Made by a program: the position numbers and the translations under genes
Part shown: piece after piece, positions 661 to 39,711 of the stretch
How the letters are laid out: each line of letters starts with the position of its first letter
How positions within the stretch are numbered: the first letter of the stretch is position 1
NCBI GenBank assembly: GCA_035708265.1
Contig: DASSSV010000461.1
Coordinates: forward strand, 1-47,227
Length of the DNA stretch: 47,227 nt
Source of the DNA: Thermomicrobiales bacterium
Lineage (GTDB): Bacteria; Chloroflexota; Chloroflexia; Thermomicrobiales; CADCWN01
Reading direction: 5' to 3'
The notes under the pieces: generated by a model
What the model was told of the DNA's origin: nothing
Database searches by the model: none
What the model saw: only the letters and a program-made list of their open reading frames with translations

Positions 661-796
661 GAGCGACGAGCGATGAGCGATGAGCAGGCTGCCGGCAGTC
701 GGCGATCGGCGTTCGGGAGGCATGGCTGACGGCTGACCGCTGACCGCTGACCGCTCGTTCCACTCATCGCTCATCGCTCAGCACTCATCGCTCATT
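661..796. repeat. heptamer-word repeat element (CGATGAG / TGACCGC words) with inverted arms
   Basis: The region is 7-nt periodic: gagcgac gagcgat gagcgat gagc ... tgacggc tgaccgc tgaccgc tgaccgc ... actcatc gctcatc gctcagc actcatc gctcat. The left arm gagcgatgagcgatgagc is the reverse complement of gctcatcgctcatcgctc in the right arm. It lies between the XRE stop (792) and the next gene start (637). Confidence 0.75.
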
Positions 797-1064
797 GGGC
801 GCGACGCGCCTGGACAGACCGGCCCGACGCCCCCGCTTGCGAGACGGAGGGGCGCGGCACGCCGTAGAGCTCGAACTGGGGGTCCACGGGGCGGCCGAGC
901 GCCGCGCCGTAGACGCGCGCGAGAACCTCGGCCTCCGGCCAGGCCGGGGCGCCGGCCTCGATGCGCTGGAGCGTGCGCAGGCAGTAGCCGAGCCGCGTGG
1001 CCGCCTGGCGCTGCGTCCAGCGCAGCTCGCGGCGGAGGCGGGCGGCGGGCGAGGCGGCGCTCAC
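792..1064 (-). CDS. XRE/Cro-C1-type helix-turn-helix transcriptional regulator
   Basis: In-frame GTG at 1064 within track ORF 792..1325. VSAASPAARLRRELRWTQRQAATRLGYCLRTLQRIEAGAPAWPEAEVLARVYGAALGRPVDPQFEL... shows the XRE HTH pattern (TQ.QAA..LG....TL.RIE.G). GTGA start/stop overlap with the upstream ORF. Confidence 0.7.
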   Translation of the reverse strand: MSAASPAARLRRELRWTQRQAATRLGYCLRTLQRIEAGAPAWPEAEVLARVYGAALGRPVDPQFELYGVPRPSVSQAGASGRSVQARRAQ

Positions 1065-1303
1065 GCCAGCGCCCGCGAACCGGCCGGCTGCTCGCCGGCG
1101 GCGCCGGCGCCGGGGTAGCGCACGGCCAGGGCCTCGGCGACGACCGTTGAGCGCGTCACGTGGCGCGCGGCCGCCTCCTGCCGGACCTCGTCGGCGACGG
1201 GCTCGGGCAGGCAGACGGTCAGCGAGCGGTAGCCGACGCCGTGCCGCTGCCGCCGCGGCCCGCGCGGCCTCGTGCGCTGCTGGGATGCGATCGCCTCGCC
1301 CAT
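1061..1303 (-). CDS. ribbon-helix-helix (CopG/Arc-like) DNA-binding protein
   Basis: Track ORF. RSLTVCLPEPVADEVRQEAAARHVTRSTVVAEALAVRY fits the strand-helix-helix pattern of RHH proteins. GGAGGAGG lies 7 nt upstream of ATG 1303. It is the first gene of a two-gene operon with the XRE gene. Confidence 0.6.
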   Translation of the reverse strand: MGEAIASQQRTRPRGPRRQRHGVGYRSLTVCLPEPVADEVRQEAAARHVTRSTVVAEALAVRYPGAGAAGEQPAGSRALA

Positions 1304-1331
1304 GGGGGCATCCTCCTCCGCCCATTCGCTT

Positions 1332-1407
1332 CTAGTTGTAGTATACTAGGACTAGTAAATCAAGTCAAGTAGTATAGTGCTTGTCTATGGTATACTCCGA
1401 CTAGTAG
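1332..1407. promoter_or_regulatory. AT-rich divergent control region with palindromic operator-like boxes
   Basis: This is the only AT-rich stretch in the window. It has a perfect 10-bp palindrome TAGTATACTA (1339..1348) overlapping the -10, further GTATAGT (about 1372..1378) and GTATACT (1390..1396) boxes, and repeated CTAGT/ACTAG half-sites. It sits between divergent HTH regulator genes. Confidence 0.6.
1340..1368 (-). promoter_or_regulatory. sigma70-type promoter for the RHH-XRE operon
   Basis: Read on the minus strand: -35 TTGACT (1368..1363), 17-nt spacer, -10 TATACT (1345..1340), about 35 nt upstream of ATG 1303. Confidence 0.6.
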
Positions 1408-1561
1408 CGAGCCACGGGCGGGGGGGCGGCCGACGCGGGACGGCGCCGGCGCGGCGGTTGTACCCGCGCGGGGCGCGCCACACCGGAGGGGCGGGGTGTC
1501 GTGCGGCGCGACGACATGGAGGAGGGGCCGTGGGAGAGCGGGGCCGTGGAAGGGGTGTGGC

Positions 1562-2023
1562 ATGCCGGGTGAGGGCCGCGGGGACCTCGGGGTCCTGCTG
1601 AAGCGCATGCGCGAGAGCAGGGGGTACACGCAGAAGGCGCTCGCCGCGCGCGCGGGGGTGTCGCAGGAGCTGGTCAGCCACATCGAGACGGGGCGGGTGA
1701 CGCGGCCGTCGCGCGACTCGCTGCTGGCGCTGGCAGGCACGCTGGGCGTCGCGCCCGACCCGCTGCTGGAGGCGGCCGGCCGGCTGGACGATCAGGAGCG
1801 GCGCGTCGGGTCGGGACCGCTGGCGGCGGGCCGGGACCTGATCGCCTGGATCGAGTCGCGGCCGGACCTGGTGGAGGAGCTGGAGACGCTCAGGCGGAAC
1901 AACTCGCCCGAGATCTACCAGCAGGTGCTGGCGGGACTGGCGCGGGCGTGGGAGGCGAGTTTCCGCCTGGCGATGGGGGCGTTCGCGGCCGGCGGCGAGG
2001 ACGCCGCGGGACGTCGGGCGTGA
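1562..2023 (+). CDS. XRE-family HTH regulator (repressor-like) with a C-terminal helical domain
   Basis: In-frame ATG 1562 in track ORF 1496..2023, preceded by GGAAGGGG. MPGEGRGDLGVLLKRMRESRGYTQKALAARAGVSQELVSHIETGRVTRPSRDSLLALAGTLGV... is a classic XRE HTH. Confidence 0.7.
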   Translation: MPGEGRGDLGVLLKRMRESRGYTQKALAARAGVSQELVSHIETGRVTRPSRDSLLALAGTLGVAPDPLLEAAGRLDDQERRVGSGPLAAGRDLIAWIESRPDLVEELETLRRNNSPEIYQQVLAGLARAWEASFRLAMGAFAAGGEDAAGRRA

Positions 2024-2109
2024 GGAGGAGGGCGGCGACGGGGCCGGAGGCCGTGAGGGGGCGGTCGCCGGCAGCGTGCCGACGTGGGCACGATGGAGGT
2101 AGAGACGCC

Positions 2110-2463
2110 GTGGGCCCGGCAGAGGAGTCGTGGCGAACACAGGGGTTGCCGTGGTTCGAGGTCGACGGGCTGGATCGGCGTTATCTGCTCAGGTGCCGGG
2201 AGGCGCCGCCGTGCGCGGTGCTGCCGGCCGGGCTCGAGGCGTGGGCGCGGGAGGACGCCTTCGCGGGCTGTCTCATGGACCTGGAGCTGGCCTGCACCGG
2301 GCGGCTGGCGCTGTGGGAGCGCCTGCTGCGGCTGGTGGAGGCGCCATCGGGTCCCGCGGCGGCGGGGCTGGCCGCGGCGGGGATCGCGGCGCTCATCAAC
2401 CTGGTGGACGGGCTGAACTGGGCCGAGCGGGCGCTGGGCTTGGTCGCGTCCCTCCCCTGTTGA
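2110..2463 (+). CDS. hypothetical protein (117 aa)
   Basis: In-frame GTG 2110 of track ORF 1948..2463, preceded by GGAGG. From here the text looks protein-like (ESWRTQGLPWFEVDGLDRRYLLRCREAPPCAVLPAGLEAWAREDAFAGCLMDLELACTGRLALWERLL...); upstream it is Arg/Gly-rich junk. No family recognised. Confidence 0.4.
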   Translation: MGPAEESWRTQGLPWFEVDGLDRRYLLRCREAPPCAVLPAGLEAWAREDAFAGCLMDLELACTGRLALWERLLRLVEAPSGPAAAGLAAAGIAALINLVDGLNWAERALGLVASLPC

Positions 2464-2487
2464 GCGGCGACGAGCGATGAGAGATGG

Positions 2488-2529
2488 GCCGCGAGCGACG
2501 AGGCCGACCGCCAGTTCGTCGCTCGCGGC
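2488..2529 (+). terminator. 14-bp GC-rich hairpin downstream of the 2110..2463 ORF
   Basis: gccgcgagcgacga (2488..2501) pairs perfectly with tcgtcgctcgcggc (2516..2529), followed by tt. It uses the same gagcgacga/gcgatga words as the 661..796 element. Confidence 0.5.
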
Positions 2530-2605
2530 TTGCACAGAGGCCCTTTAGTTCGGTGGAGAATAGAGGGGGCGTTAGGCCGGTTTTTGGCGCCACAGCAAAG
2601 ACTTC

Positions 2606-2825: not shown

Positions 2826-4106
2826 TCACGCCACCAGTTCGCGCCCGGCCGCGAAGCGCTCGTGCTCGCCGTGGTCGATGATCTCGCGCAGATGGCGGGC
2901 GACCTGCCAGACGTCCGCGAACGAGGTGTAGAGCGCGATCGGCGCGAGGCGCACGACGTTCGGCGGGCGGAAGTCGGGCACGACGCCGCGCGCCTTGAGC
3001 GCCTTGGCGATCCGCGCGCCGTCGGCGTGCTCGACCGCGACGTGCCCGCCGCGCCGGTCGTCCTCCTGGGGCGTGCCGATGGCATAGTGATACGGCGCGG
3101 CGGTCAGGCCGGTCGCGTCGAGCAGGTCCATCAGGTAGCGGGTCAGGGCGAGCGACTTGGCGCGCACGCGCGCGATGCCGGCCTCGCCGAAGATCGCCAG
3201 CGAGCCCAGGAGCGGCGCGCTGCTGAGGGCCTGGACGGTGCTGATCTGCCAGGCTCCGGCATCCTGCGCGGGGATGAAGCCGGGCGTCATGTCGAACTGC
3301 CGCGCCTTGTCGCTGCCCCACCAGCCGGCGAGCCCCGGCGCCGCGCCGAAGTGCCGGCGGTTGACATAGAGCCCGGCGGTGCCGCCCGGCCCGTTGTTGA
3401 GGTACTTGTAGTTGCACCAGCAGGCGAAGTCGACGTCCCACTCGTCGAAGCGGTGCGGCACGGCGCCGACCGAGTGGCAGCAGTCGAAGCCGGCCGGGAC
3501 GCCGCGCGCGTGCGCCGCCGCGGTCAGCCCGGCGATGTCGAAGAGTTGCCCGCTGCGGTAGAGGACCGAGGGGAGGACGAGCAGCGCGACCTCGTCGGTC
3601 AGCGCGGCGACGATGTCCTCCTCGGCGATCGTGCGCCCGTCGCGGCTGCCGACGAGGACGAGGTCGCCCTCCGGGTCGGCGCCGCGCAGCGCGAGCTGGC
3701 TGCGCAGCGCGTAGAGGTCGGAGGGGAAGTCGAGCGCGGTGGCGACGATCTTCCGGCGCCGCCCAGCCGGCCGGTAGAAGGTGGCGACGAGGCTGTGCAG
3801 GTTGACGGTCGTCGTGCCGGTGACGACGACCTCGTCGGCCGCGGCTCCGACGAGCGGGGCGGTGCGTTTGCCGAGTTCCTCGCCGAGGTAGTACCAGGGC
3901 GTCGGCGCGCCGAGCCAGCCGTCGATGCCGAGGTCCTTCCACTCGCCGAGGACGCGCAGCACGGCCGCCTCGGCGTCGCGCGACAGCAGGCCCAGCGAGT
4001 TCCCGTCGAAGTAGAGGATCTCGGGCCGCAGGTAGAAGCGCTCGCGGAAGGGCGCGAGGGCGTCGGCGCGGTCCAGTTCGGCGGCGTAGTCGGCGTCGGT
4101 GCGCAT
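2826..4106 (-). CDS. kynU: kynureninase
   Basis: C-terminal 426 aa of track ORF 2826..6191, starting at ATG 4106 (AAGGAG upstream). MRTDADYAAELDRADALAPFRERFYLRPEILYFDGNSLGLL...FDCCHSVGAVP...WCNYKYLNNGPGGTAGLYV... is a PLP-dependent kynureninase family pattern along the full length. Confidence 0.9.
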   Translation of the reverse strand: MRTDADYAAELDRADALAPFRERFYLRPEILYFDGNSLGLLSRDAEAAVLRVLGEWKDLGIDGWLGAPTPWYYLGEELGKRTAPLVGAAADEVVVTGTTTVNLHSLVATFYRPAGRRRKIVATALDFPSDLYALRSQLALRGADPEGDLVLVGSRDGRTIAEEDIVAALTDEVALLVLPSVLYRSGQLFDIAGLTAAAHARGVPAGFDCCHSVGAVPHRFDEWDVDFACWCNYKYLNNGPGGTAGLYVNRRHFGAAPGLAGWWGSDKARQFDMTPGFIPAQDAGAWQISTVQALSSAPLLGSLAIFGEAGIARVRAKSLALTRYLMDLLDATGLTAAPYHYAIGTPQEDDRRGGHVAVEHADGARIAKALKARGVVPDFRPPNVVRLAPIALYTSFADVWQVARHLREIIDHGEHERFAAGRELVA

Positions 4107-4124
4107 GGCGGCGTGCTCCTTCGG

Positions 4125-4180
4125 AGACGACAGACGGTAGACGATAGACGAAAGGTGGCGGACGGCGGATGGCAGGGGCA
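4125..4180. repeat. direct heptamer tract (AGACGNN / GGNNGGC words)
   Basis: agacgac agacggt agacgat agacgaa aggtggc ggacggc ggatggc aggggca: strict 7-nt phasing in the kynU 5' leader / divergent intergenic region. Confidence 0.65.
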
Positions 4181-4309
4181 GTATAGCGCGGTTTGGCGGG
4201 CGACAGCGGAAGCCGGCGGCTGAAGAGGGACGGTCAGGAGGGTGGTGCGCAGCCCCGACCGCGATGCCCGGGGCGGCCCGGGTCAGCACTTCTGACGTCT
4301 CGCTGCCGT

Positions 4310-6062: not shown

Positions 6063-6232
6063 CGCGGGGCGTGGGCCGTGGTGCGTAGAGGGTTGTGATG
6101 GCCCATCCCATCCCAAGCGTCGCTCTGGTCCGTTACGCGAGGGGGCGGCCCCGACGAGGGGGAAGGCGGTCGCCCGATTCCACGCCGCCACGCTTTACGC
6201 CCTTCGGCCCACGCCCCACGGCTCACGGCCCC
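6063..6232. repeat. heptamer-word element (CGTGGGC / GGCCCAC words) with inverted arms
   Basis: The left arm ggggcgtgggccgtggtgcgtag is complementary to cggcccacgcccc in the right arm, which is 7-nt phased: ctttacg cccttcg gcccacg ccccacg gctcacg. It starts directly after the stop at 6062 and ends just before the promoter at 6238. Confidence 0.7.
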
Positions 6233-6237: not shown

Positions 6238-6266
6238 TTGACGCCCCGCCGCGCCGGTGCTAGAAT
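6238..6266 (+). promoter_or_regulatory. sigma70-type promoter for the ANTAR regulator gene
   Basis: TTGACG (6238..6243), 17-nt spacer, TAGAAT (6261..6266). This implies a leader of roughly 130 nt before ATG 6402. Confidence 0.65.
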
Positions 6267-7049: not shown

Positions 7050-7080
7050 GCGGCCGCCCGCGCTGGGCGCGGGCGGCCGC
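7050..7080. terminator. bidirectional hairpin between convergent genes
   Basis: gcggccgcccgcgc (7050..7063), loop tgg, gcgcgggcggccgc (7067..7080): a perfect 14-bp stem between the ANTAR stop (7022) and the cdaR stop (7098). There is no U-tract. Confidence 0.5.
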
Positions 7081-7097
7081 GTCGTCTCCGCGCGCGG

Positions 7098-9282: not shown

Positions 9283-9409
9283 CAGGACTCTCGCGCGCGC
9301 GGGACGCGGGGCGCTCACCCCCGCGGCCGGCGCCCAAACACAGCATGGCTCGGGGCGCGCCCCGCGAGGGCGGCGTGCTCCGCGCCGGCCACCGTGTTTG
9401 TATTATAGC

Positions 9410-9540
9410 GCAGACGGCAGATGGCAGACGCAGAAGAGTTGCGAGTTGATAGTTCATGGTTGATAGTGGGGCGCGCCTCCGCGACACTATCAACTGTCAA
9501 CTGTGAACTACCAACTCCTACTGCCGTCTGCCGTCTGCCG
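9410..9540. repeat. nested two-family heptamer-word hairpin (GGCAGAC words outside, GTTGATA words inside)
   Basis: The left side gcagacggcagatggcagacgcag...gttgcgagttgatagttcatggttgatagtg faces cactatcaactgtcaactgtgaactaccaactcc...ctgccgtctgccgtctgccg. The central 10-bp stem gttgatagtg/cactatcaac is perfect; the outer arms are imperfect but in 7-nt register. It lies between the TPR gene stop (9550) and the cdaA upstream region. Confidence 0.8.
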
Positions 9541-9549
9541 CCTCCCTCG

Positions 9550-12537: not shown

Positions 12538-12722
12538 ATGTGGGCCGTGGGCCGTGGGGCGTGGGCTGTCGGGTGTGGGCCGCGCATTTGACGTGGGGAC
12601 GGACGATCAGACCGGCGCGGGTGAGGTCAGGGGATCGCGTAGCGCCGGGGGAAGCACCCAACCACGCGGCCGCCCCCCCGGCTTACGGCCTACGCCTCAC
12701 GGCCCACGCCCTACGGCCCCCG
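12538..12722. repeat. heptamer-word element (GTGGGCC / GGCCCAC words) with imperfect inverted arms
   Basis: gtgggcc gtgggcc gtggggc gtgggct gtcgggt gtgggcc on the left; ggcttac ggcctac gcctcac ggcccac gccctac ggccc on the right. Same word family as 6063..6232. The right arm overlaps the last codons of the DnaI/DnaC-like gene. Confidence 0.7.
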
Positions 12723-13553
12723 CCGCCCGCCACGCGTCGACGGCCGGCGCAGGCCGCCGAAGGCGGGGTTGTCGTGGCGGCGGTAGTCGGGCGCGTCGAT
12801 CAGGACGTAGCGGCACAGGTGCGTGTCGCTCAGGCGCGAGACGATCCGCGCGTCGATCTGCTCGAAGTCGTGGTTGCTGGTCACGACGGTGGCCAGCCCC
12901 TCGTTGTAGCGGTGGTTGAAGATCTGGAAGAGTTTTTCCTTGGCCCAGGGTGTCGCGTTCTCGGTGCCCAGGTCGTCGAGGATCAGGAGCGGCACGCTGC
13001 GCACGTCCTGGAAGAGCTGGTCGTAGGTCACGCCGCCGGTGTCGCTCGGGTTGAAGGTGGCGCGCAGGTGGTCGAGGAGGTCGGGCACGATGGTGAAGAG
13101 CGCGCGTCCCCCCTGGTGCGTGATGTAGTAGTTGGCGATCGCCGCGGCCAGGTGGGTCTTGCCGGTGCCGCAGTTGCCGTGGAAGAAGATCCAGGGCGTG
13201 CCGGTGCCCTTGGGGTCGCGCGCGTAGGCGACAGCGATGTCGCGCGCGGCGGCGACATCGCGGTTGACACCGGGGTCGAAGCTCTCGAAGGTCTTGTGCT
13301 CGAAGGGGCCGAGGTTGCCGATGCGCAGCAGTTCTTCGTGCTTGCGCCGCTCGCGCTCGCGGATGCGGCACTCGCAGGGAATCAGGCGCCCGAAGTTCGG
13401 GTCGGTGATCGGCACCTCGAAGCGGACGTAGCCCGCGCCCTTGCAGATCGGGCAGACCTCCTCGTCCGGCTCAGCCGCTGGCGGCCCGCCGACCCCGGTA
13501 TTTCGCGGGATCGAACGTTCCAGCTCCTTGATGATGTCCCCGATGCTCCGCAT
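12711..13553 (-). CDS. DnaI/DnaC-like AAA+ replicative helicase loader
   Basis: Track ORF with GAAGGACGGGG upstream of ATG 13553. N-terminal zinc-binding-like CPICKGAGYV...LIPCEC, Walker A GNCGTGKTHLAAAI, Walker B LLILDDLG, then VVTSN. Lies next to DnaD-like and dnaB genes. Confidence 0.8.
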   Translation of the reverse strand: MRSIGDIIKELERSIPRNTGVGGPPAAEPDEEVCPICKGAGYVRFEVPITDPNFGRLIPCECRIRERERRKHEELLRIGNLGPFEHKTFESFDPGVNRDVAAARDIAVAYARDPKGTGTPWIFFHGNCGTGKTHLAAAIANYYITHQGGRALFTIVPDLLDHLRATFNPSDTGGVTYDQLFQDVRSVPLLILDDLGTENATPWAKEKLFQIFNHRYNEGLATVVTSNHDFEQIDARIVSRLSDTHLCRYVLIDAPDYRRHDNPAFGGLRRPSTRGGRRGP

Positions 13554-19756: not shown

Positions 19757-19771
19757 GCGCGGCAGAACACG

Positions 19772-19801: not shown

Positions 19802-19821
19802 ACGGAGAAAGCGAGGAGCGG

Positions 19822-20941: not shown

Positions 20942-22398
20942 ATGATCCGCCGTCTGCCCCTCAGCCTCGTGCTGGCCCTGCTCCTCGTCGCCTGCGGCGC
21001 CGCCGCGGGCACGCCGGCCCCGACCGTGGCGCCGACGGCCACCGCGCCGCCGACTGCCGCGCCGCCGCCCGCGACGGCCGCCCCCACCGCCCCGCCCGTC
21101 GCGGCGGCGCCGGCCGCGACCGCCACCGCGACGCCGGTCGCCCGCCACGGCGCCACGCTCTGGGTCGTCGCGGGCTCCGGGCCGGCGGCGAAAGTGGTCG
21201 CGCTCGACGCCGCGACCGAGAAGGAGTTGGTCGCGGTGCCGGTCGGCGTGCCCTCCCAGGATTGGAAGGTGCTCTACGCGGCCGCCAGGGCGGGCGCGGG
21301 CACGACCGTCACGGCCTACGGCCTGGCGACCGGCCAAGCCCTCCGCTCGACCACCTTCGACGGCGACTACCGCCTGCCGGCGGCCTACCCCGGCTGGCTC
21401 GATAGCGGCCTCTCCTACGACGGCCGCACGCTCGTCCTCCAAGAGATGCCGAGCCCGGACCAGGCGCAGGCGTACAGCAACAGCGGCAAGTGGGTCAGCC
21501 GCTTCGCCGTCCTCGACACGGCACTCACCGCGCCGCCGAGGATCGTCGAGTTGCAGGGGAACTATCACTACGACACGATGGCGCCGGATGGGCGCGTGCT
21601 CTATCTGATCGAGGCGCAGTCGGCGGACAACCCGGCGCTCTACGGCGTCCGCGCCTACGACCTCGCCGCGGGCGCGCTGCGGCCCGGCTTCGTGGTCGAC
21701 AAGTCGAACGCGGACGCCATCATGGAGGGCTTCGCGCTGACGCAGGTCAGCGGGCCGGGCGGCTCCTGGGTCTTCAGCTCTATCGCAACGAGAAGACCGG
21801 GCCGTTCATCCACGCGCTCGGCGCCGCCGACGGCTTCGCCGTCTGCCTCGACCTCCCGACCGCGGGCAAGGAGAACGCGGAGGCCGCGCTCGCCTGGACG
21901 CTGGCCGCCGGGCCGCACGACACCATCCTCTACGCGGTCAACGCCGCGCTGGGGCTGGTCGCCGAGGTCGACGCGACCGGCCCGCGCATCGTCCGCACCG
22001 CCACCATCCCGGCCGCGCCCGCCTCGTCGCGCGGTGGCCCGCTCGCCCGCCTGGGCGACTGGCTGGCCCCGGCGGCGTCGGCGAAGGAAGCCCAGCCGGG
22101 CGTGGCGGCCGTCTCCCCCGACGGCCGGACGCTCTACGTGGCGCGGCCGGACGGCCTCCTGGCGATCGACACCGCCACGCTCCAGCCGCGCGGCCGGCAG
22201 GGGGGCGGCCAGGTGAGCGTCATCAGGCCCGCGACGAGCCTGCTGGCGAGCCCCGACGGCGCGCAACTCTTCGCCGTGGTCGGCGACGGCGGCGGCTACG
22301 CCCTCTATCGCCTCGACCCGGCAAGTGGCATGGTCCTGGGCGAGTTCAGCCGGGCGCTGAACGTCACCGCCGTGGTCCACGTCGCGGCGGCGCATTGA
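20942..22398 (+). pseudogene. lipoprotein with beta-propeller-like repeats, disrupted by a 1-nt frameshift (or assembly error)
   Basis: ATG 20942 (GGGAGG upstream) gives the signal/lipobox MIRRLPLSLVLALLLVACG. Protein-like text runs in the frame of track ORF 20879..22216 up to ...GPGGSWVFS (about 21778), then continues in the frame of ORF 21490..22398 as LYRNEKTGPFIHALG... Each ORF is Arg/Pro-rich junk on the other side of the junction. Confidence 0.7.
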
Positions 22399-29654: not shown

Positions 29655-29690
29655 GCGCGGCGGGTGGCCACCGGTGGCCGCCCGCCGCGC
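29655..29690. terminator. bidirectional hairpin between the convergent epimerase and rsr genes
   Basis: gcgcggcgggtggcc (29655..29669) pairs with ggccgcccgccgcgc (29676..29690), with one G-U. Confidence 0.5.
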
Positions 29691-29714: not shown

Positions 29715-31385
29715 TCAGCCTCCCGCTCCATCGCCCACCCCCGGCGCGGCCGCCGCGAAGTCCGCGATGAGTGCCGGGGCCGCGGTGTCGAAGCCGACGA
29801 CGTCGAGCATGCCCGCGTCGTCGGGGTCGGCGATGGTGAAGCCGTTCGACACGAGGCCGACGGTCACCATCCGCGCGGCCGGGTTGACCCGCGCGCGGTA
29901 CTCGCGCAGCGCCGCGGCCGGGTGGACCGGCCCGGCCCACGTCTCCGAGTCGGTGTAGACAGCGAAGACGTCGACCGCGAGGCGATGCTTCAGCGCCCAG
30001 CGCATCGGCAGGGAGCAGTCGGTGCCGCCGAACGGCAGCCCGGCCGTGTAGCGGACGACCTCGTCGAGGCGCTGCCGCGGGTCGATCGCCAGCGGCGCGA
30101 GCCCGCTCACGTCCGCGGGGTTGAGGTTGCGCGCCCAGCCGCCGCCCGACGTGAAGCCGACGATGGTGTGCTCGGCCTCGACGTTCGCCGTGACCAGCGC
30201 CATCGCCGCCGCCGCGACGCGCGGCGTCAGCCCCGGCACGCCGGCGACGACGCCCGCGCCCATCGAGCCGGAGACGTCGAGCGCCAGCAGCCAGTGCCGC
30301 CCGGTCGGCGCAACGTTCCCGAACGCCAGGTAGAACGCGGCGTCGAGCGCCTCGACGACCGCCGCCACCGGCGTCCAGGTGTGCCGCCCGCGCGCGCCAT
30401 GCCCCTGCCCGTAGGTCACGAGCGCGGCCAGCACCGCGAGCGGGTGGATGCGCGCGCGGCGCAGCCCCTCCCGGTCGCCCAGGCGGGCCGCGACCGCCCG
30501 GCTCGCGTCGCTCCCCGGCGCCACCAGGCCGACGCGCGTGAGCGTGGCGAGGTTGCGCAGGAGCGCCCCGAGGGGCAGGCCCTCCAGCAGCGCCTCCCAG
30601 ACGGCCGCCTCCGTCAGCCAGGCGGTCGGGACCGCCTCGCGCGGCAGGCGGTGATCGCGGACCAGCGCGGCGACCTCGCGCGCCGAGGTCGCCCGCTTGG
30701 CGCGCTCGAACGCCCAGATCAGGCGCAGGCCCTCGTCGGGGTGCGGCGCCTCGCCCACGCCCGGCCAGCCGCGCGTCGCCCAGTAGTAGAGCGCCCGGCG
30801 GGTCTCGGTCGCGGGCCGCGGGTGCGCCAGGCGCAGCAGGTCGCGGTGCGACCAGCCGTCGCGCGCCTGGTACTTGACGAGCTGGTAGGCTAGGTCGGCG
30901 TCGCCCCGGTCGGCGTACCAGCCGGCGACGGCGCGGCGCAGGCCGCGGCCCCAGCCGCGCAGGCCGTCGGCGAAGGCGGCGAAGTGCAGGAGGTGCGTGC
31001 CGGTGCGCGCGACCCGCGGCAGCGCCGCCAGCGCCGCCCGGCGGGTGGCGTCGTCGCCCTCCGCCGCGGCGAGCGCGAGCGCGAAGAGCGCCGGGTCATT
31101 CTTCGGCGCGCGCCCGGCCTCGGAGACCGCGACGATGCGCCACACGGCGCGAGGGCCGTCCGCCGCGAGGCAGCGCGCCAACGCCCGCGCATTCTCCCGG
31201 GTCAGCGCCGGCTCGGTCGCGTAGTACGACCCGCCTTCGCTGCCGAGGACGAGGAAGCGGTCGAGCCGCGTCCAGTCGTCGACCGCCCAGGCGTAGCCGC
31301 CGGCGCTGTTCGGCGCCTGCGCGGAGCCGGGCAGCGGCAGCGACTGGGGCGTCGCACGCGTCGCCAGGGGCTTCAGGTAGCGCAT
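29715..31385 (-). CDS. rsr: Ro60-related protein (TROVE domain plus C-terminal vWA domain)
   Basis: Track ORF (556 aa). NSAGGYAWAVDDWTRLDRFLVLGSEGGSYYA, AGRAPKNDPALFALALAA, YQLVKYQARDGWSHRDLLRLAHP, then vWA with MIDAS-like LLALDVSGSM...GGTDCSLPMRWA...VFAVYTDSETW. This is the TROVE/Ro60 architecture. AAGGAGG upstream of ATG 31385. Confidence 0.9.
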   Translation of the reverse strand: MRYLKPLATRATPQSLPLPGSAQAPNSAGGYAWAVDDWTRLDRFLVLGSEGGSYYATEPALTRENARALARCLAADGPRAVWRIVAVSEAGRAPKNDPALFALALAAAEGDDATRRAALAALPRVARTGTHLLHFAAFADGLRGWGRGLRRAVAGWYADRGDADLAYQLVKYQARDGWSHRDLLRLAHPRPATETRRALYYWATRGWPGVGEAPHPDEGLRLIWAFERAKRATSAREVAALVRDHRLPREAVPTAWLTEAAVWEALLEGLPLGALLRNLATLTRVGLVAPGSDASRAVAARLGDREGLRRARIHPLAVLAALVTYGQGHGARGRHTWTPVAAVVEALDAAFYLAFGNVAPTGRHWLLALDVSGSMGAGVVAGVPGLTPRVAAAAMALVTANVEAEHTIVGFTSGGGWARNLNPADVSGLAPLAIDPRQRLDEVVRYTAGLPFGGTDCSLPMRWALKHRLAVDVFAVYTDSETWAGPVHPAAALREYRARVNPAARMVTVGLVSNGFTIADPDDAGMLDVVGFDTAAPALIADFAAAAPGVGDGAGG

Positions 31386-31427
31386 AGCCTGCCTCCTTGC
31401 CAGCCCGCGCGGGCCGGCGCTGCGAAC

Positions 31428-31513
31428 GGGTGATGGGCGAAGCGGGCGCCTCGGCGCCGGGCTCCCAGGTCTCCGACTTCGTGCGGGATAACCGAAGCGC
31501 GACGGCCCATCCC
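31428..31513 (-). ncRNA. structured rsr leader element with a Y-RNA-like terminal helix (bulged C) and a GGUUAUC motif
   Basis: Minus strand: GGGAUGGGC-C-GUCGCG CUUCGGUUAUCCCGCACGAAG ... GGCGCCGAGGCGCC CGCUUC GCCCAUC. GAUGGGC (31511..31505) pairs with GCCCAUC (31438..31432), followed by a single unpaired C on the 5' strand and then GCG/CGC. Contains GGGCCG-N9-GGUUAUC as in the upstream units. Confidence 0.4.
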
Positions 31514-31644
31514 GGTGGCGGCGGAGGGATTCGAACCCTCGTCTCTCCGGTGAAAGCGGTAACCCTCACCCTCCGGCCCGCGCGGGGCGCCAGGCAAGGT
31601 GTGGCCGAGGGTAGTAGCGTGCTAGGCCCCTACACCACGCCGCC
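31514..31644 (-). ncRNA. tRNA-shaped RNA unit 1 (tRNA-Glu-like arms) with a 56-nt internal module; candidate Rsr-associated Y-like RNA
   Basis: Minus strand: GGCGGCG UG GUGU AGGGGCCUA GCAC G CU [ACUACCCUCGGCCACACCUUGCCUGGCGCCCCGCGCGGGCCGGAGGGUGAGGGUUA] CCG CUUUCAC CGGAG AGAC GAGGG UUCGAAU CCCUC CGCCGCC A CC. Acceptor, D and T arms are canonical and the variable loop is 4 nt, as in tRNA-Glu. CCA is not encoded. Confidence 0.6.
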
Positions 31645-31744
31645 GGGGGATGTCCTGCTCTTGCTTTGGGCCTCGGTCGGTGGGGCGCTCCCGCGGCCGG
31701 GAGCGGCGGTCACAGCCGTTGGCGCCGGCTGGCGACCGTTCCGT

Positions 31745-31830
31745 CGCGGCGGGGGCGGGATTCGCGCCGAAGCCGGGCACTACCCGCACGCGGCCGGCCC
31801 GTCTCCGGGCGGGGCATCGTGAAGGGATCG
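31745..31830 (-). ncRNA. decayed copy of the module/T-arm part of the unit (no intact cloverleaf)
   Basis: Minus strand: GAUCCCUUC...GCCCG GAGA CGGGCCGG CCGCGUGCGGGUAGUGCCCGG CUUC GGCG CGAAUCC CGCC CCCGCCGC. The element order matches the units (CCCUC-like, GCCCG-loop-CGGGCCG, GGGU-A-U-type motif, degenerate T arm, CGCCGC), but D and T loops are not canonical. Confidence 0.3.
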
Positions 31831-31902
31831 CGCGTGCCCGGCGTGTCTGCCCGTTTCACCATCCCCCTCACCCTGTCTCGCTCGCTGCTCGTTCACCGTC
31901 CG

Positions 31903-32026
31903 GGGCGGCGGCGGGACTCGAACCCGCAACCTACCGGTTATCAGCCGATAACCCTCGACCTGCGGCCCGCGATGCGGGCAAGGGGACGGCGGAGGGCAGT
32001 TGCTCTGCCAGTTGAGCTACGCCGCC
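31903..32026 (-). ncRNA. tRNA-shaped RNA unit 2 with a 51-nt internal module; candidate Rsr-associated Y-like RNA
   Basis: Minus strand: GGCGGCG UA GCUC AACUGGCA GAGC A AC [UGCCCUCCGCCGUCCCCUUGCCCGCAUCGCGGGCCGCAGGUCGAGGGUUAU] CGG CUGAUAA CCGGU AGGUU GCGGG UUCGAGU CCCGC CGCCGCC C. The acceptor stem is the same as in unit 1. CCA is not encoded. Confidence 0.6.
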
Positions 32027-32068
32027 CGGTCCCGGTGAATGGTGTCGCGCCCTGGCGGGCGCGGCGCC

Positions 32069-32192
32069 GGTGCAGACGGTGGGACTCGAACCCACGGCCC
32101 GCGGAGTCCCGATAACCCTCGGACGCCGGCCCTCGCGGGCGAGAAATCTGCCGAGGATAGCTCCGCCGCTCTCCCAACTGAGCTACGTCCGC
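32069..32192 (-). ncRNA. tRNA-shaped RNA unit 3 with an internal module replacing the anticodon loop region; candidate Rsr-associated Y-like RNA
   Basis: Minus strand: GCGGACG UA GCUC AGUUGGGA GAGC G GCGGAG CU [AUCCUCGGCAGAUUUCUCGCCCGCGAGGGCCGGCGUCCGAGGGUUAU] CGGGA CUCCGC GGGCC GUGGG UUCGAGU CCCAC CGUCUGC A CC. AUCCUCGG pairs with CCGAGGGU, so the helix stacks on the GCGGAG/CUCCGC stem. Confidence 0.55.
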
Positions 32193-32229
32193 GCGTCGCG
32201 GGCGAGGGGATCGGCCTGGGACCACTCCT

Positions 32230-32300
32230 CGCGGAGTGCAGGAGTCGAACCTGCAAGCCACCGATAACCCAGACCTTCCGGCCCGCCCGAGTAGCATACG
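32230..32300 (-). ncRNA. partial unit 4 (module 3' part, T arm, acceptor 3' strand only)
   Basis: Minus strand: ...CUACUCGGGCGGGCCGGAAGGUCUGGGUUAUCGGUGGCUU GCAGG UUCGACU CCUGC ACUCCGC G. No matching 5' acceptor strand (G[CU]GG[AG]GU) or D arm was found upstream. Confidence 0.4.
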
Positions 32301-32961: not shown

Positions 32962-33095
32962 GAGGAGAAGCGGGATCGAGTGAGGCTGGCGAGGGCCGGG
33001 CGGTTGAACCCGCGGCTGCATGGCAGGCCCGCACGCGGGCACCCCGCCACGAAGCCCGCCCGCGCGGGTCAGAAACGGCCCAGTCCGCGGTGTCC

Positions 33096-33138
33096 CCCTC
33101 ATCGTACGGCCGTACGGGGGCCGGCCCGTACGATGAGG
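33096..33138. repeat. 14-bp perfect inverted repeat built from CGTACG words
   Basis: ccctcatcgtacgg (33096..33109) pairs with ccgtacgatgaggg (33125..33138). A third ccgtacgg copy lies in the loop, and cgtacggccgtacg is itself palindromic. Located between the peroxiredoxin and Nudix genes. Confidence 0.7.
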
Positions 33139-33185
33139 GAGACACCGCTGTCTCGCGAAGCGGGCGACATCGCAGAAGGGCTATC

Positions 33186-36923: not shown

Positions 36924-36928
36924 CGTTA

Positions 36929-37069
36929 GTCGGCGGACGGCAGACGGCAGAGACGGTCTCCGGCAGGTAACGCTGTCAACGACAGCACAGCCAGTACTGC
37001 CGTCTGCTGTCCGCCGTCCGCCGTCCGCCGTCTCGTCACTTCCGACTCCCGACTCCCGACTCCCGACTC
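36929..37069. repeat. heptamer-word hairpin (GGCAGAC/GGCGGAC words) plus a (GACTCCC)4 direct tract
   Basis: gtcggcggacggcagacggcag (36929..36950) faces ctgccgtctgctgtccgccgtccgccgtccgccgtc (36997..37032). An inner hairpin gctgtc aac gacagc is present. gactccc x4 (37044..37069) lies inside the last codons of the ATPase gene. Confidence 0.8.
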
Positions 37070-37800
37070 ACCTCCTCCGCCACGACCTGCCCGTCGCGCA
37101 TGCGGATCAGGCGGCCGGCGCTGGAGGCGACGTCGGCCGCGTGGGTGACGATCACGAAGGTCTGGCCCTCGTCGGCGTTGAGGCGGCGGATCAGGGCCAG
37201 GATCTCGGCCGCCGACTCGCTGTCGAGGTTGCCGGTCGGCTCGTCGGCCCAGACGATCGCCGGGCGGTTGACCAGCGCCCGCGCGATGGCGACGCGCTGC
37301 TGCTGCCCCCCGGAGAGCGCCGCCGGCCGGTGCTCGATGCGGTCGGCCAGCCCGACGGCGTCGAGCATCGCCAGCGCGCGGGCGCGCGCCTCGCCACCGC
37401 GCACGCCGGCGATCAGCAGCGGCAGTTCGACGTTCTCGACCGCGCTGAGCGTCGGCAGCAGGTTGAACGACTGGAAGATGAAGCCGGTGGCGCGCGCCCG
37501 CAGCCGCGCCCTGGCGTCGTCGGAGAGGCGGCGCAGCGACACGCCGGCCAATGCAACCTCGCCGGCGAAGTCGCTCTCCAGCCCGGCCAGGCAGTTGAGC
37601 AGCGTCGTCTTGCCGCATCCGGACGGCCCGACGATCGCCACCAACTCGCCGCGCTCGATCCGCAGGTCCACGCCCCGCAGCGCCTGGACCGTCACCGCAC
37701 CGCTGCGGTAGACCTTGCCCAGCCCGCGCGTCTCGACGGCGGGCGCCTCCGGCCCCGCGTGGCCGTTGGGCGCGAAGCGGCCCCGGCGCCGGCTAAACAC
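37036..37800 (-). CDS. ABC transporter ATP-binding protein (MacB/LolD type)
   Basis: Track ORF. Walker [11 protein letters not shown]-loop [10 protein letters not shown], signature [15 protein letters not shown], Walker [13 protein letters not shown]. The start is GTG 37800, overlapping the upstream gene by 8 nt. Confidence 0.9.
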
Positions 37801-38524: not shown

Positions 38525-38577
38525 TTCGTCGTCGGCGTCGGCTGCATCGCCCCATAATGATACACGACGGCGGGGTT

Positions 38578-38751
38578 GGCCCTCACCCCCCGGCCCCCTC
38601 TCCCAATCCTGGGAGAGGGGGGAGAACTCGCCGAGACATCGTGCTGCTCTTCCAGATCTCGGGACCGGAAGAGCAGCACCCTGGCTGCGCCAGGCGCACC
38701 TCGCCCGGGATTGGGAGAGGCGGGTGCCCTCTGGGCGCGGGGGTGAGGGCC
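38578..38751. repeat. about 175-nt nested-palindrome element (GGCCCTCACCCCC ... GGGGGTGAGGGCC)
   Basis: Three concentric arm pairs: ggccctcaccccc (38578..38590)/gggggtgagggcc (38739..38751); cctctcccaatcc (38597..38609)/ggattgggagagg (38708..38720); gtgctgctcttcc (38641..38653)/ggaagagcagcac (38668..38680). Local hairpins cctctccc..gggagagg and cctggc tgc gccagg are also present. Confidence 0.75.
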
Positions 38752-38752
38752 G

Positions 38753-38968
38753 CTAATCCACCGGGCGCTGGACCACGCCGAGGGGCGTGCCGCACTCGGC
38801 GCAGCACAGCAGCGTGCGCTGGTGCCCGAGGACGACCTCGACCACCGCGCGCGCCTCGTGGACACAGGCGACGCGGTAGGCACTGACCGCGCCGTCGTCG
38901 AGGATCTCCTGCACTGGTCGGTCCGCGTGACGGTCGGGCTGACGGTCACGCACGTCGATGACCTGCAT
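38753..38968 (-). CDS. small hypothetical protein (71 aa), Cys-containing
   Basis: In-frame ATG 38968 with AAAGGAGGG upstream, inside track ORF 38753..39154. MQVIDVRDRQPDRHADRPVQEILDDGAVSAYRVACVHEARAVVEVVLGHQRTLLCCAECGTPLGVVQRPVD. No family recognised. Confidence 0.5.
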   Translation of the reverse strand: MQVIDVRDRQPDRHADRPVQEILDDGAVSAYRVACVHEARAVVEVVLGHQRTLLCCAECGTPLGVVQRPVD

Positions 38969-39099
38969 GGGTGCCCTCCTTTCGCGGCGGTAGCAGTACA
39001 GCCGGTGCGCATCGCCGCCGGCCGGCTCCCGGAGTGCGGCGTGCGGCGACGGAGCATTCCTATTTATGTAACGCACGGGGCCCTCCCCGGGCTTCACGG

Positions 39100-39176
39100 G
39101 TTGCGAGTTGAAAGTTGATCGTTGATAGAGGACGGGAGCCGCCATCCCCGTCAACTCTCAACCATCAACTACCGAC
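39100..39176. repeat. heptamer-word hairpin (GTTGATA / TCAACNN words)
   Basis: gttgcga gttgaaa gttgatc gttgata gagg on the left; tcaactc tcaacca tcaacta ccgac on the right. It shares the gttgcgagttga...gttgatag wording with 9439..9467 and overlaps the stop of the 113-aa ORF. Confidence 0.75.
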
Positions 39177-39499
39177 ACGTACAGGTTGAAGCCGAACTCC
39201 TGGGCGATGGCGCAGGCGCTGTCGAGCCGTTGCAGGGCCAGCGCGACAACCAGCCGCTCCGGCAAGTCGGCCGCGCCCACCGCTTCGAGCACGCCCCGCA
39301 ACTCGGCGCGGAGCACGGGCAGTTGCCCCGCGCCGATGGCCACGTCCCCCGCTTCGAGGATTGTGGCGAGGCCCGGCGCCGCGGCGCGCAGCCAGGGCGC
39401 GTCGAGTTCGGCCATCTCCTCGGGACGCAGGACGAGCGCCGGCCGGTTGAGCGCGGCGTCGCCCCGATCGAGCCCGAACGTGCAGCGCAGCACCGGCAT
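39158..39499 (-). CDS. hypothetical protein (113 aa)
   Basis: Track ORF. MPVLRCTFGLDRGDAALNRPALVLRPEEMAELDAPWLRAAAPGLATILEAGDVAIGAGQLPVLRAELRGVLEAVGAADLPERLVVALALQRLDSACAIAQEFGFNLYV... has plausible protein composition. Two other frames give Arg-rich ORFs over the same span. No family recognised. Confidence 0.45.
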   Translation of the reverse strand: MPVLRCTFGLDRGDAALNRPALVLRPEEMAELDAPWLRAAAPGLATILEAGDVAIGAGQLPVLRAELRGVLEAVGAADLPERLVVALALQRLDSACAIAQEFGFNLYVSVVDG

Positions 39500-39547
39500 C
39501 CGACGGCTCCTGCACTACGGCGCCACGTTCGCAGGGTTTGTGCCACA

Positions 39548-39711
39548 GGCGAGGCGTTGGGCGTTAGGCGTTAGGTGACGGCGGCGCGCCCGCCCACGAT
39601 CAACAACCAACCGCCGCCGACCGTCTTCCGCCGCCCATCGCCCGCCGCCTATCCCCTCTCGTCCGTCTCCTACCGCCTAACGCCTAACGCCTAACGCCTA
39701 ACGCCTTACCC
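39548..39711. repeat. heptamer-word element (GGCGTTA / CCTAACG words) with inverted arms
   Basis: ggcgaggcgttgggcgttaggcgttagg (left) is complementary to cctaacg x4 (ccgcctaacgcctaacgcctaacgcctaacgcc, right), about 100 nt apart. The right arm supplies the last two codons and the stop of the GT-C gene. Confidence 0.8.

Follow-up and report, generated by a model that had tools for sequence, protein, structure and literature searches.

Many intergenic gaps of a soil Thermomicrobiales (Chloroflexota) chromosome are occupied by arrays of 7-base words in the 47-kb stretch of DNA analysed here, which we call the window (73% GC, 8.8% non-coding). These arrays are almost exclusive to non-coding DNA, and most form inverted pairs with very stable imperfect hairpins. 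Among long periods, 7 alone yields tandem arrays in the window: a self-identity scan over lags 4–15 returned seven segments at lag 7 and four at lag 14, all remaining lags being empty. With a strict criterion of at least 12 lag-7 matches in 14, 16 arrays were observed, compared with a mean of 1.1 and a maximum of 4 in 30 dinucleotide shuffles. Strict scanning of the window gave no arrays at periods 8 and 10–12 and one, in coding sequence, at period 9. Fifteen of the 16 strict arrays are mostly non-coding (binomial P = 2e-15).

TRF called period 7 at 660–795, 2467–2502, 4125–4151, 6180–6231, 9410–9540, 12540–12582 and 12679–12724, 19718–19752 and 19772–19801, 36931–37069, and 39552–39575 and 39669–39706; the strict lag-7 scan detected 39100–39176. 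Each array has 3–6 copies matching at 65–100%, and at least nine word families occur in the window. The words listed in the initial annotation were correct on recheck, and the sites it listed were all recovered by TRF or the strict scan except 33096–33138, which holds no array. Its term "strictly periodic" was too strong, given the imperfect copy match and the aperiodic interiors of 6063–6232 and 12538–12722.

Elements and their neighbouring genes

E1 (658–796, minus strand; TRF, folding, soil contigs) is a composite hairpin with outer arms of (GAGCGAT)n at 658–686 and the complement (CTCATCG)n at 760–796, and inner arms of degenerate NTCGGCG words (690–720) and (GGCTGAC/CGCTGAC)n (722–757). 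It lies in prophage-like DNA, reaching from the stop of an HTH gene (792) to the RBS/GTG of an 83-aa gene (654–635), folds at −80.1 kcal/mol (z −5.3) and was found unchanged in five soil contigs. E2 (2464–2531, plus strand; TRF, folding, family comparison) begins 3 nt past a stop codon (2461–2463); its (GCGACGA/GCGATGA)n array at 2466–2502 continues into a hairpin at 2486–2531 that reuses the word in its stem (−39.3 kcal/mol, z −3.6). E3 (4122–4181, minus strand; TRF, folding) is made of two solo arrays that lack inverted partners, (AGACGNN)x4 at 4125–4152 and a (GGCGGAC)-type array at 4157–4181, and makes up a C/U-rich leader from a TATACT box (4182–4187) to the RBS/ATG (4121–4104) of a kynureninase-like gene.

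E4 (6063–6232, plus strand; TRF, folding, family comparison) is a long hairpin of −93 kcal/mol with (CGTGGGC/CGTGGGG)-type arms at 6063–6085 and 6180–6232; it runs from the stop of a TPP-enzyme gene (6062) to a point 6 nt short of the −35 box of an ANTAR-regulator promoter. Metatranscriptome data, in which RNA coverage is sparse, contained an RNA contig beginning at 6285, beyond E4. E5 (9409–9546, minus strand; TRF, folding, family comparison) is a nested two-module hairpin (−81.6 kcal/mol, z −8.7) between the stop of a TPR gene (9550) and the cdaA TATAAT box; its outer (GGCAGAC)n arms (9409–9437 and 9517–9546) enclose a (GTTGATA)n module (9438–9468 and 9486–9516, loop 9469–9485). In E6 (12538–12724, minus strand; TRF, folding), a long hairpin of −119 kcal/mol, (GTGGGCC/GTGGGGC)n arms lie at 12538–12582, about 60 nt upstream of the −35 box of a TPR-gene promoter, and at 12679–12724, the latter including the stop of a DnaC/IstB-like gene (12711).

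E7 (19718–19801, plus strand; TRF) likewise holds two solo arrays, neither of them matched by an inverted one. E7a, (GCGACGA)n at 19718–19752, encodes the final ~13 residues and the stop of a GH127 gene whose C-terminal domain stops at residue 901 of 914, and E7b, (TCTGCAA/TCTGTAA)x4 at 19772–19801, adjoins the RBS of a formamidase gene (ATG 19822). E9 (36929–37072, minus strand; TRF, folding, soil contigs) joins a hairpin and a solo array: the (GGCGGAC/GGCAGAC)n arms (36929–36952 and 36995–37034) lie inside an ABC-transporter operon, from the ATPase stop (37036) to the start of an FtsX-type permease (36923), and E9b, (GACTCCC)x4.6 at 37037–37072, encodes the C-terminal tail of the ATPase. E10 (39100–39176, minus strand; folding, family comparison) is a free-standing (GTTGATA)n hairpin module (−38.3 kcal/mol, z −4.1). 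E11 (39548–39711, minus strand; TRF, folding, soil contigs) has (GGCGTTA)n arms at 39552–39577 and 39667–39711, the right one running over a stop codon at 39698. The hairpin is strongly lopsided, about 16 words against about 4, with some 16 in-phase degenerate NNNGGCG heptamers running inwards on the minus strand and a remnant of a GTTGATA-module arm in its interior (39594–39620). The site at 33096–33138 (E8, strand unassigned; fold −54.9, z −8.4) was rejected as a heptamer array; it is a plain perfect 26-bp palindrome without a TRF period-7 call, and its stem has one CTCATCG word.

The elements span the distance from a stop codon, often overlapped, to the next promoter or RBS, mostly between co-directional genes. 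Predicted promoters lie beside them at 6238–6266 (TTGACG-17-TAGAAT), 12474–12446 (TTGTCC-17-TATACT) and 9402–9407 (TATAAT), bearing out the placement after stop codons and before promoters noted initially; other elements adjoin RBSs (637–654, 4106–4121, 19805–19822). At 12711, 19718–19756, 37036–37072 and 39698, arrays extend over the closing codons of the gene upstream, making arbitrary protein tails (E6, E7a, E9b, E11), so that, together with the asymmetry of E11, selfish or neutral expansion fits as well as function.

Inverted array pairs occur at seven sites, and the long imperfect hairpins predicted for them in the initial annotation fold stably (−38 to about −125 kcal/mol, z −3.6 to −8.7); the arrays at 4125–4180, 19718–19801 and 37037–37072 stand alone. 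The sense strand folds as well as or better than the antisense strand in seven of eight hairpins, E6 being the exception, and the asymmetry is weak (for E11, −93 on the minus strand and −77 on the plus). None of the elements carries a U-tract, and the evident terminators of the genome are short, perfect GC hairpins that differ from them in style. That E9 separates the ATPase gene of an ABC transporter from the permease gene of the same transporter argues against strong termination.

Homologous modules and variation among relatives

The recurrence of word families across loci proved stronger than first described. The inner hairpin of E5 and E10 are copies, loop included, with the order of variant words kept (z 20). 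E4 and E6 have a common 14-nt double word, and their arms agree at 24 of 25 bases; an arm ending in GGCAGTA (the B family) is common to E3, E5 and E9, and a GCGACGAGCGATGAG array to E1, E2 and E7a. Modules also sit nested within each other, as in E5. In soil contigs, the E10-type GTTGATA arm was found on 4–5 more contigs per run at the organism's own depth, on one of which a GGCAGAC array again precedes the GTTGATA array. In a single soil run, ~100 contigs matched the GACTCCC array of E9b, and the GGCGTTA array of E11 has a high copy number; some contigs fuse 39580 to 39676 without the interior, a minimal form of E11. The sites are not independent.

Among strains ~99.5% identical, the arrays are nearly invariant, with an indel at one site among ~10, indicating that slippage is not fast. 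At position 9429 in E5, run X5 has 8 additional nucleotides (one word plus 1 nt) and run X26 has one, with no corresponding change in the opposite arm. Strains differ by a whole word at a single site, and the "word-copying mechanism" suggested there stands in the ordinary sense of slippage, on one strain with one extra word. Between related species, the word is swapped at the orthologous site while the architecture of stop codon, hairpin and promoter is retained. In the TPR–cdaA spacer, the window has GGCAGAC and GTTGATA; a relative with a 94%-identical CdaA has CTCGTCA x4 against the same GCTATAAT box, a 75% relative has a GAACGGG hairpin (−75 kcal/mol) and a 72% relative a long, non-heptamer hairpin.

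Purely local neutral slippage would produce independent arrays in any unconstrained DNA, with recurring words reflecting mutational or compositional bias and hairpins being terminators with arms expanded by chance. The arrays do fill just the space that is free of constraint and run on into the tails of genes, solo arrays without hairpins occur (E3, E7, E9b), the whole-word indel is confined to one arm and relatives have different words at the orthologous site. We nevertheless consider this account unlikely: E5-inner and E10 have loop and variant-word order in common, the 14-nt superstructure is common to both arms and to different loci, the same metagenomes contain more copies whose flanks are conserved, and at least three shared families among ~9 loci would be unexpected by chance given ~1,170 canonical heptamer classes.

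Dispersed and nested homologous hairpins, and the replacement of an element at an orthologous site in the 94%-identical relative, would also suit MITE- or REPIN-like mobile elements that are non-autonomous and depend on a dedicated transposase encoded elsewhere in the genome, such as a RAYT or IS200/IS605-type Y1 enzyme acting on hairpins, with the heptamer substructure secondary. REP families are known from Thermomicrobium roseum (PMC3733652), heptamer hairpins occur within a phage ORF on an IMG/VR contig, and on contig L059 the context changes precisely at E1's outer edge, although chimeric assembly at a repeat may account for this junction. No transposase gene, terminal inverted repeat or target duplication was identified in the 47-kb window, and the elements have no conserved GTAG or CGTC tag; copies differ in loop and arm length, and neither the solo arms nor the long arrays on one side only (E3, E11) resemble transposition products. 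Mobility of this kind is an improbable explanation.

Known heptanucleotide repeats and a proposed origin

In many prokaryotes, heptanucleotide arrays are the most over-represented class of long SSR, and inverted heptamer-array pairs have been described in Xanthomonas at 70–75 cases per genome (PMC4692102; PMC4679880 on Mrazek 2007). Xanthomonas, cyanobacteria and Beggiatoaceae thus already provide examples of such arrays, inverted pairs among them. The initial annotation claims too much novelty. For Chloroflexota, we found no description of such arrays. A close match is the Xanthomonas GGGAATC repeat (Rehm et al. 2015, PMC4692102), also found in high-GC genomes as intergenic 7-nt tandem arrays, mostly of ~4 units, mainly between co-directional ORFs and often as two opposite-strand arrays able to form a stem-loop. 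One G-rich word dominates there, whereas the window has its many families, most unable to form a G-quadruplex, two-deep nesting, homologous whole-hairpin copies and word replacement at orthologous sites, and belongs to the Chloroflexota. Action through G-quadruplexes or i-motifs, as for Xanthomonas GGGAATC and Nostoc GGGGAYT, has very little chance of being right: G3-4 tracts recur at 7-nt spacing in GGGAGTC (37037–37072), which is one base away from the Xanthomonas word (PMC4692102), in GTGGGCC/GTGGGGC (E4, E6) and in the relatives' words GGGGAAC and GGGGTCA, but such structures are impossible for GTTGATA, GAGCGAT, GGCAGAC, GGCGTTA, TCTGCAA and AGACGNN, and the set as a whole cannot be explained in this way.

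Cyanobacterial STRRs and other long SSRs with a heptameric unit (Mazel 1990 and Mrazek 2007, in the summaries of PMC4692102 and PMC4679880) likewise have a heptanucleotide unit, several words per genome, intergenic location, lineage-specific abundance and no explained function; unlike the present elements, STRRs are defined in heterocystous cyanobacteria, use words particular to them and consist for the most part of long direct arrays. In Nostoc, pairs of inverted arrays are reported to be rare (PMC4692102). The TAACTGA direct repeats of marine Beggiatoaceae, for which a post-transcriptional role has been proposed, resemble E3, E7b and the edge of E1 in lying directly upstream of a start or RBS, but involve a single word, inverted in 1/170 sets, in AT-rich genomes (PMC4679880). 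These upstream repeats and CspB-binding heptamers (PMC4679880) are precedents for binding-site arrays, in which flanking genes would be controlled, at translation or transcription, by a protein that reads 7-nt DNA or RNA units (for example a nucleoid or regulatory protein, or a cold-shock/OB-fold protein of which each monomer binds one heptamer). Unstructured solo arrays do adjoin RBSs (E3, z +1.4; E7b), yet at least nine unrelated words are in use, words vary freely at 1–2 positions within arrays and differ between orthologous sites, and no candidate protein was identified, which makes such binding highly unlikely.

In REP/BIME/REPIN and Neisseria mosaic intergenic elements (PMC3733652; PMC3116915), as here, imperfect palindromes of several families per genome are dispersed in mosaic or nested arrangements between unidirectional or convergent ORFs and are presumed to be transcribed into stem-loops that stabilise upstream mRNA. 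REPs differ in that their units, of 20–40 bp, bear a conserved tag (GTAG or CGTC), GTAG REPs being associated with RAYT transposases; here the arms are heptamer arrays of 20–70 nt, with no such tag and no transposase within the window.

We favour, if not strongly, the reading that the elements are lineage-specific heptanucleotide tandem repeats (STRR/long-SSR type) organised as REP/BIME-like mosaic palindromes. Arrays would originate and resize in 7-nt steps through slipped-strand mispairing, the generic account offered for the prokaryotic heptamer excess (PMC4692102, PMC4679880). Whole hairpin modules or single arms may then be copied into other intergenic gaps, preferably into existing hairpins, by recombination, template switching or some transposase, with arm complementarity roughly maintained by copying and selection. 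Expansion would continue up to constrained sequence, set by a stop codon or the tail of a protein at one end and by a −35/−10 box or RBS at the other. Co-transcription with the upstream gene would place long stem-loops at its 3′ end, where they would most likely act in a REP/BIME-like manner, protecting the 3′ end, terminating transcription in part and insulating the promoter that follows, and not as the regular terminators of the genome. Solo arrays in leaders would yield unstructured, pyrimidine-rich 5′ UTRs beside the RBS. The window is a dense, real case of a known bacterial phenomenon and not a new type of system; with it, the known class of heptamer repeats gains a new member in a new phylum, the Chloroflexota.

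Heptanucleotide arrays and the hairpins they form

The window, with a GC content of 70–77%, is an ordinary piece of the chromosome of a Thermomicrobiales bacterium (Chloroflexota). Relatives of its CdaA were found exclusively in Thermomicrobiales, Sphaerobacter or Nitrolancea MAGs; among species representatives the highest identity is 72%, and closer relatives from metagenomes show 98%, 94% and 81–83% identity. The organism occurs in ~20 soil metagenome runs from eight studies at roughly 6–14x depth. The genes encode a TPP enzyme, an ANTAR response regulator, YbbR, CdaA, a large TPR protein, a DnaC/IstB-like ATPase, a DnaD-like protein, an intein-containing DnaB, a GH127 glycosidase, a formamidase, a polysaccharide-synthesis cluster, Ro60 and an ABC ATPase with an FtsX-type permease. 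The replicative helicase DnaB (14255–16876, minus strand) is split by an intein that carries a LAGLIDADG homing-endonuclease domain; its orthologues in the related loci L024 and L027 are 445 aa long and intein-free. The bacterial Ro60 gene (TROVE + vWA, 29715–32290, minus strand) adjoins tRNA-like modules, the best of which matched the Rfam tRNA model with 51 bits over a 122-nt span (32071–32192), with weaker matches at 31907–31970 and 31516–31578. Weak YrlA matches lie at 32133–32284 and 31972–32119, and the region 29715–32290 is probably an Rsr/Y-RNA-like locus. A long GC-rich ORF of the proline/alanine-type repetitive kind (20879–22216) had no Pfam match and contains many 15–45-nt tandem repeats (TRF, 20989–21152).

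TRF detected 22 arrays of period 7 in the 47 kb, each with 2.8 copies or more. A lag-p scan returned seven self-identity segments at lag 7, four at its multiple 14 and none at any other lag between 4 and 15. Under a strict criterion there were 16 period-7 arrays, compared with a mean of 1.1 in dinucleotide shuffles, and periods 8–12 gave a single array (period 9, in coding sequence). Fifteen of the 16 strict arrays are placed in non-coding DNA, which makes up 8.8% of the window (P = 2e-15); array density is ~1 per 3 kb. The intergenic period-7 excess claimed by the initial annotation is thus real within the window, and the word sequences it listed are correct. Its description of the sites as strictly periodic held in part: arrays are present, but they are short (3–6 copies) and imperfect, and the long elements E4 (6063–6232) and E6 (12538–12724) have heptamer arms around interiors that are not periodic. 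E8 (33096–33138), proposed as a related heptamer case, is instead a plain perfect palindrome.

Inverted partner arrays, which had been described for most sites, fold as long imperfect hairpins at seven: E1 (658–796; predicted −80 kcal/mol, z −5.3), E4 (−93 kcal/mol), E5 (9409–9546; −82 kcal/mol, z −8.7), E6 (−113 to −128 kcal/mol), E9 (36929–37072; about −70 to −76 kcal/mol, z −3.7), E10 (39100–39176; −38 kcal/mol, z −4.1) and E11 (39548–39711; −93 kcal/mol). The arrays at 4125–4181, 19718–19801 and 37037–37072 are solo. Mismatches in the hairpins repeat with a 7-nt period because point mutation diverged individual words. E1 and E5 have two layers: in E5 a complete (GTTGATA)n hairpin is enclosed by an outer (GGCAGAC)n arm pair, and in E1 inner (GGTCAGC)n-type arms lie inside outer (GAGCGAT)n arms. 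E11 is strongly asymmetric, its minus strand carrying ~16 in-phase NNNGGCG heptamers, which decay inwards from four perfect TTAGGCG copies, against ~4 words in the partner arm. As a gauge of RNA-level selection acting through G–U pairs, the two strands were compared: the fold of the sense strand was at least as stable as that of the antisense strand in seven of eight hairpins, mostly by less than 4 kcal/mol, with a clear margin only for E11 and the reverse order for E6. The solo arrays of E3 (4122–4181), in the leader of a kynureninase-like gene, have less structure than shuffles (z +1.4). No element matched Rfam; E8 (33077–33156) had hits only far below gathering scores.

Copies of word families and their replacement between relatives

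Judged from their sequences, the element sites are related copies and not independent events. The recurrence of word families at different loci, as first described, was borne out for the E5 inner module and E10, for E3, E5 and E9, for E4 and E6, and for E1, E2 (2464–2531) and E7a, an array of E7 (19718–19801). E10, a free-standing hairpin, and the E5 inner module align over their full length including the loop (z 20) and have the variant-word order GTTGCGA-GTTGAWA-GTTSATS-GTTGATA in common. The arms of the B family (GGCAGAC/GGCGGAC-type words) in E3, E5 and E9 end in GGCAGTA; E4 and E6 have the 14-nt double word GTGGGGC GTGGGCC in common, on both arms; and GCGACGAGCGATGAG is common to E1, E2 and E7a. 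An arm remnant of the D family (GTTGATA words) lies inside E11. With ~1,170 canonical heptamer classes, at least three families common to ~9 loci are not expected by chance. Each family has 2–3 copies in the 47-kb window, and none of the window's word families was present in ~600 kb of other Thermomicrobiales loci, which marks them as specific to this species or genus.

Further copies were seen in the soil runs. The D arm with other loops occurs on 4–5 extra contigs per run at the organism's depth, not all of them assignable to this genome, and on one of these a (GGCAGAC)n...GGCAGTAA array precedes the D arm, a nesting as in E5. Contigs joining 39580 to 39676 carry a minimal hairpin of the E11 type (GGCGTTA) without the interior. 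The (GACTCCC)n array of 37037–37072 matched ~100 contigs in one run, not all assignable to this genome, with a summed k-mer depth of ~4000 vs ~8 for the organism; part of them have a common upstream flank (...CCCTACGGAAGC). In the soil community this word array occurs many times over, and it is possibly part of a larger element.

Among soil strains ~99.5% identical to the window, the arrays hardly vary: five contigs carry an identical E1, and E9–E11 are free of indels. The exception is E5, where position 9429 has 8 additional nt in run X5 and 1 additional nt in run X26, with no matching change in the other arm. This difference corresponds to a complete word together with a 1-nt phase defect carried by the window's allele, X5 being one word over an X26-like allele. 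The variation in word number for which the initial annotation had proposed a search thus took the form of a whole-word change at one site among ~10 elements.

At greater distance the word is replaced and the architecture persists in the spacer that separates the TPR-gene stop from the cdaA −10 box. The window has the nested GGCAGAC and GTTGATA hairpin in this spacer; the relative with a 94% identical CdaA has (CTCGTCA)x4 adjoining the same GCTATAATAC box; the 75% relative has a (GAACGGG)x4/(CCCGTTC)x4 hairpin of −75 kcal/mol; the 72% relative has a long inverted repeat of non-heptamer type; and the spacer of the 81% relative is 85 nt with no element. The ~100-nt GC-rich cdaA leader (9303–9401, minus strand), between the TATAAT box and the start codon, is kept in the 94% and 98% relatives (L053 and L057) and had no Rfam match; it may be a structured regulatory leader. 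A word change at a conserved site was also seen at the 3′ end of the gene before the DnaD-like one, where orthologous arrays of TCCGCGC x4 (L024, 5302–5332) and TCCGCAT x3 (L030, 5366–5385), both preceded by CCGCTCAT, overlap coding sequence. Other Thermomicrobiales loci contain 0–5 period-7 arrays per 10–20 kb, inverted pairs among them being found at L029 7435–7547 and L007 15788–15859. By these counts the habit extends widely through the order, though thinly, and has been strongly amplified in this lineage.

Placement relative to genes and candidate functions

The elements start at or over stop codons (792, 2463, 6062, 9550, 12711, 19756, 37036 and 39698), as the initial annotation had stated. 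Its further statement that they end at the next promoter applies to E4, E5 and E6, past which promoters were predicted at 6238–6266 (TTGACG-17-TAGAAT), 9402–9407 (TATAAT) and 12474–12446 (TTGTCC-17-TATACT); E1, E3 and E7 end at an RBS instead (645–654, 4113–4121 and 19805–19818). RNA data came from one metatranscriptome run, whose eight short contigs in 20 kb all lie outside the elements. One contig starts at 6285, 19 nt past the predicted −10 box at 6261–6266, and fits the promoter predicted after E4. Flanking genes are co-directional at eight of ten sites.

Intrinsic (Rho-independent) terminators were rejected as an identity for the elements: none carries a U-tract, and consensus terminator matches fell on none of the heptamer hairpins, whose tails read GCGCUAUAAU, GGCACUCAGG and so on. 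One small 5-bp consensus match (2527–2542) touches the 3′ edge of E2. The evident terminators of this genome are short perfect GC hairpins of 13–16 bp (7051–7081, 20783–20816 and 29655–29690). E9 separates the ATPase gene from the permease gene of a single ABC transporter and E1 ends 7 nt before an RBS, so strong termination is unlikely at both. Apparent −35/−10 boxes within the GTTGATA arrays (TTGATA ... GATAGT, 17-nt spacing) were not called by the consensus scan.

Several arrays extend into gene 3′ ends, supplying arbitrary C-terminal tails. In the GH127 gene, only 13 residues lie between the end of the domain and a stop codon inside an array, and the tail of the ABC ATPase is encoded by (GAGTCGG)n. 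The elements would expand into any unconstrained sequence, and where co-transcribed they would form intercistronic or 3′-terminal stem-loops. The closest functional analogy, by inference, would be to REP/BIME, with possible roles in mRNA 3′-end protection, attenuation and insulation.

E1 and E2 lie inside a prophage-like island whose end is at 1–2672, with genes for a D12 adenine methyltransferase, an 83-aa protein, an HTH protein and a divergent cI-like HTH_31 protein; its leftward continuation on soil contigs encodes SSB and a phage metallopeptidase. At 2625–2672 there is part of a tRNA, the 3′ half (T-arm, acceptor, CCA), and other contigs run leftwards from ~2640 with the tRNA 5′ half; the island is therefore integrated in a tRNA gene. 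On soil contig L059 (2440–2625, compared with 640–830 of the window), the E1 hairpin is joined directly to the start of a different gene (ABC2_membrane), and the outer edge of the E1 arm is the exact point at which the context switches. This junction is ambiguous between a genuine rearrangement, a second copy ending at the repeat and an assembly chimera through the repeat.

Relation to known repeat classes

At least nine canonical words occur in the window, and G3 tracts are present in only two families. Multi-word sets are known from cyanobacterial STRRs and from the mixed heptamers of Microcystis. The array excess, the non-coding concentration and the whole-unit copy change place the elements among the heptameric long SSRs (LSSRs; STRR-like in the broad sense), whose defining features they have. 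They are not STRRs sensu stricto: the host is a member of the Thermomicrobiales and not a heterocystous cyanobacterium, and the words differ. As relayed in PMC4679880 and PMC4692102, heptanucleotide repeats are the most over-represented class of long SSR in many prokaryotes, and polymerase slippage tied to a ~7-nt footprint has been proposed as the cause (Mrazek 2007). The TAACTGA repeats of Beggiatoaceae immediately precede start codons (PMC4679880). The GGGAATC arrays of Xanthomonas form convergent inverted pairs, 70–75 per genome, mainly between co-directional ORFs, and between species their type is preserved while length varies (PMC4692102). E1, E4, E5, E6 and E9–E11 resemble this type in having complementary word arrays on opposite strands of one intergenic region, whereas the window lacks a single G-rich, G4-competent word of the GGGAATC type.

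REP families, of which one is known from Thermomicrobium roseum, consist of tagged palindromes scattered between unidirectional or convergent ORFs (PMC3733652). The elements fall outside the REP/REPIN definition because they have no GTAG/CGTC tag common across families, the GGCAGTA end being confined to the B family, and because their arms are far longer (20–70 nt vs a 20–40 bp unit). No transposase or RAYT gene was found in the 47-kb window.

It is improbable, in our estimate, that the heptamer hairpins are active, self-propagating, very small mobile modules that insert into hairpins and even in frame into genes, with a 7-nt periodicity arising from a dedicated copying mechanism and not from generic slippage. 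Such a copier could be a polymerase, a primase or a Y1-type enzyme with a 7-nt register, and if the reading were true, the heptamer repeats of Thermomicrobiales, Xanthomonas and cyanobacteria could have one common unexplained mechanism. Heptamer-packed IMG/VR contigs with in-frame hairpins keep it alive at low probability. Contigs recovered with (GACTCCC)3 or (GAGCGAT)n contain dense period-7 arrays of many words, as many as 11 within 2.6 kb (L065 229–2039, L066 4536–12040, L071 3420–4579 and L068 4290–4572). In L065, an uninterrupted 552-aa ORF resembling a Mu gpI-type protease (297–1955) has two hairpins in frame inside it, a 75-nt inverted TTTGTCC/AAGGACA repeat and a nested two-word hairpin of ~190 nt (949–1137), which are either translated as insertions or removed somehow.

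The elements are real and striking members, in a new phylum, of the heptanucleotide intergenic repeat class, with REP/BIME-like mosaic organisation, and as such not categorically new; we infer their copying mechanism and function. The literature yielded nothing specific on heptamer repeats in Chloroflexi or Thermomicrobia. The novelty first claimed for them is too strong, since inverted heptamer pairs are already known in Xanthomonas (PMC4692102); for Chloroflexota the searches turned up no description. Points that may be new in detail are how many word families there are, the nesting in two layers, the evidence for copying of whole hairpin modules and the word replacement at orthologous sites.

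In practice, the elements break short-read assemblies (contig ends at 789 and 12524/12738), the contigs of close relatives being short and usually ending at them, and they produce artificial C-terminal tails in gene calls. Why bacteria have an excess of 7-nt repeats is an open question that goes back to the STRR sequences (1990) and the 2007 SSR survey. These elements extend the heptamer phenomenon to Chloroflexota, and the soil Thermomicrobiales lineage described here stands out for its array density and combines many word families with nested hairpins. Word turnover at orthologous sites is fast, a different word being present already in the relative with a 94% identical CdaA. The lineage is thus a useful natural system in which to separate slippage, module copying and selection for RNA structure.
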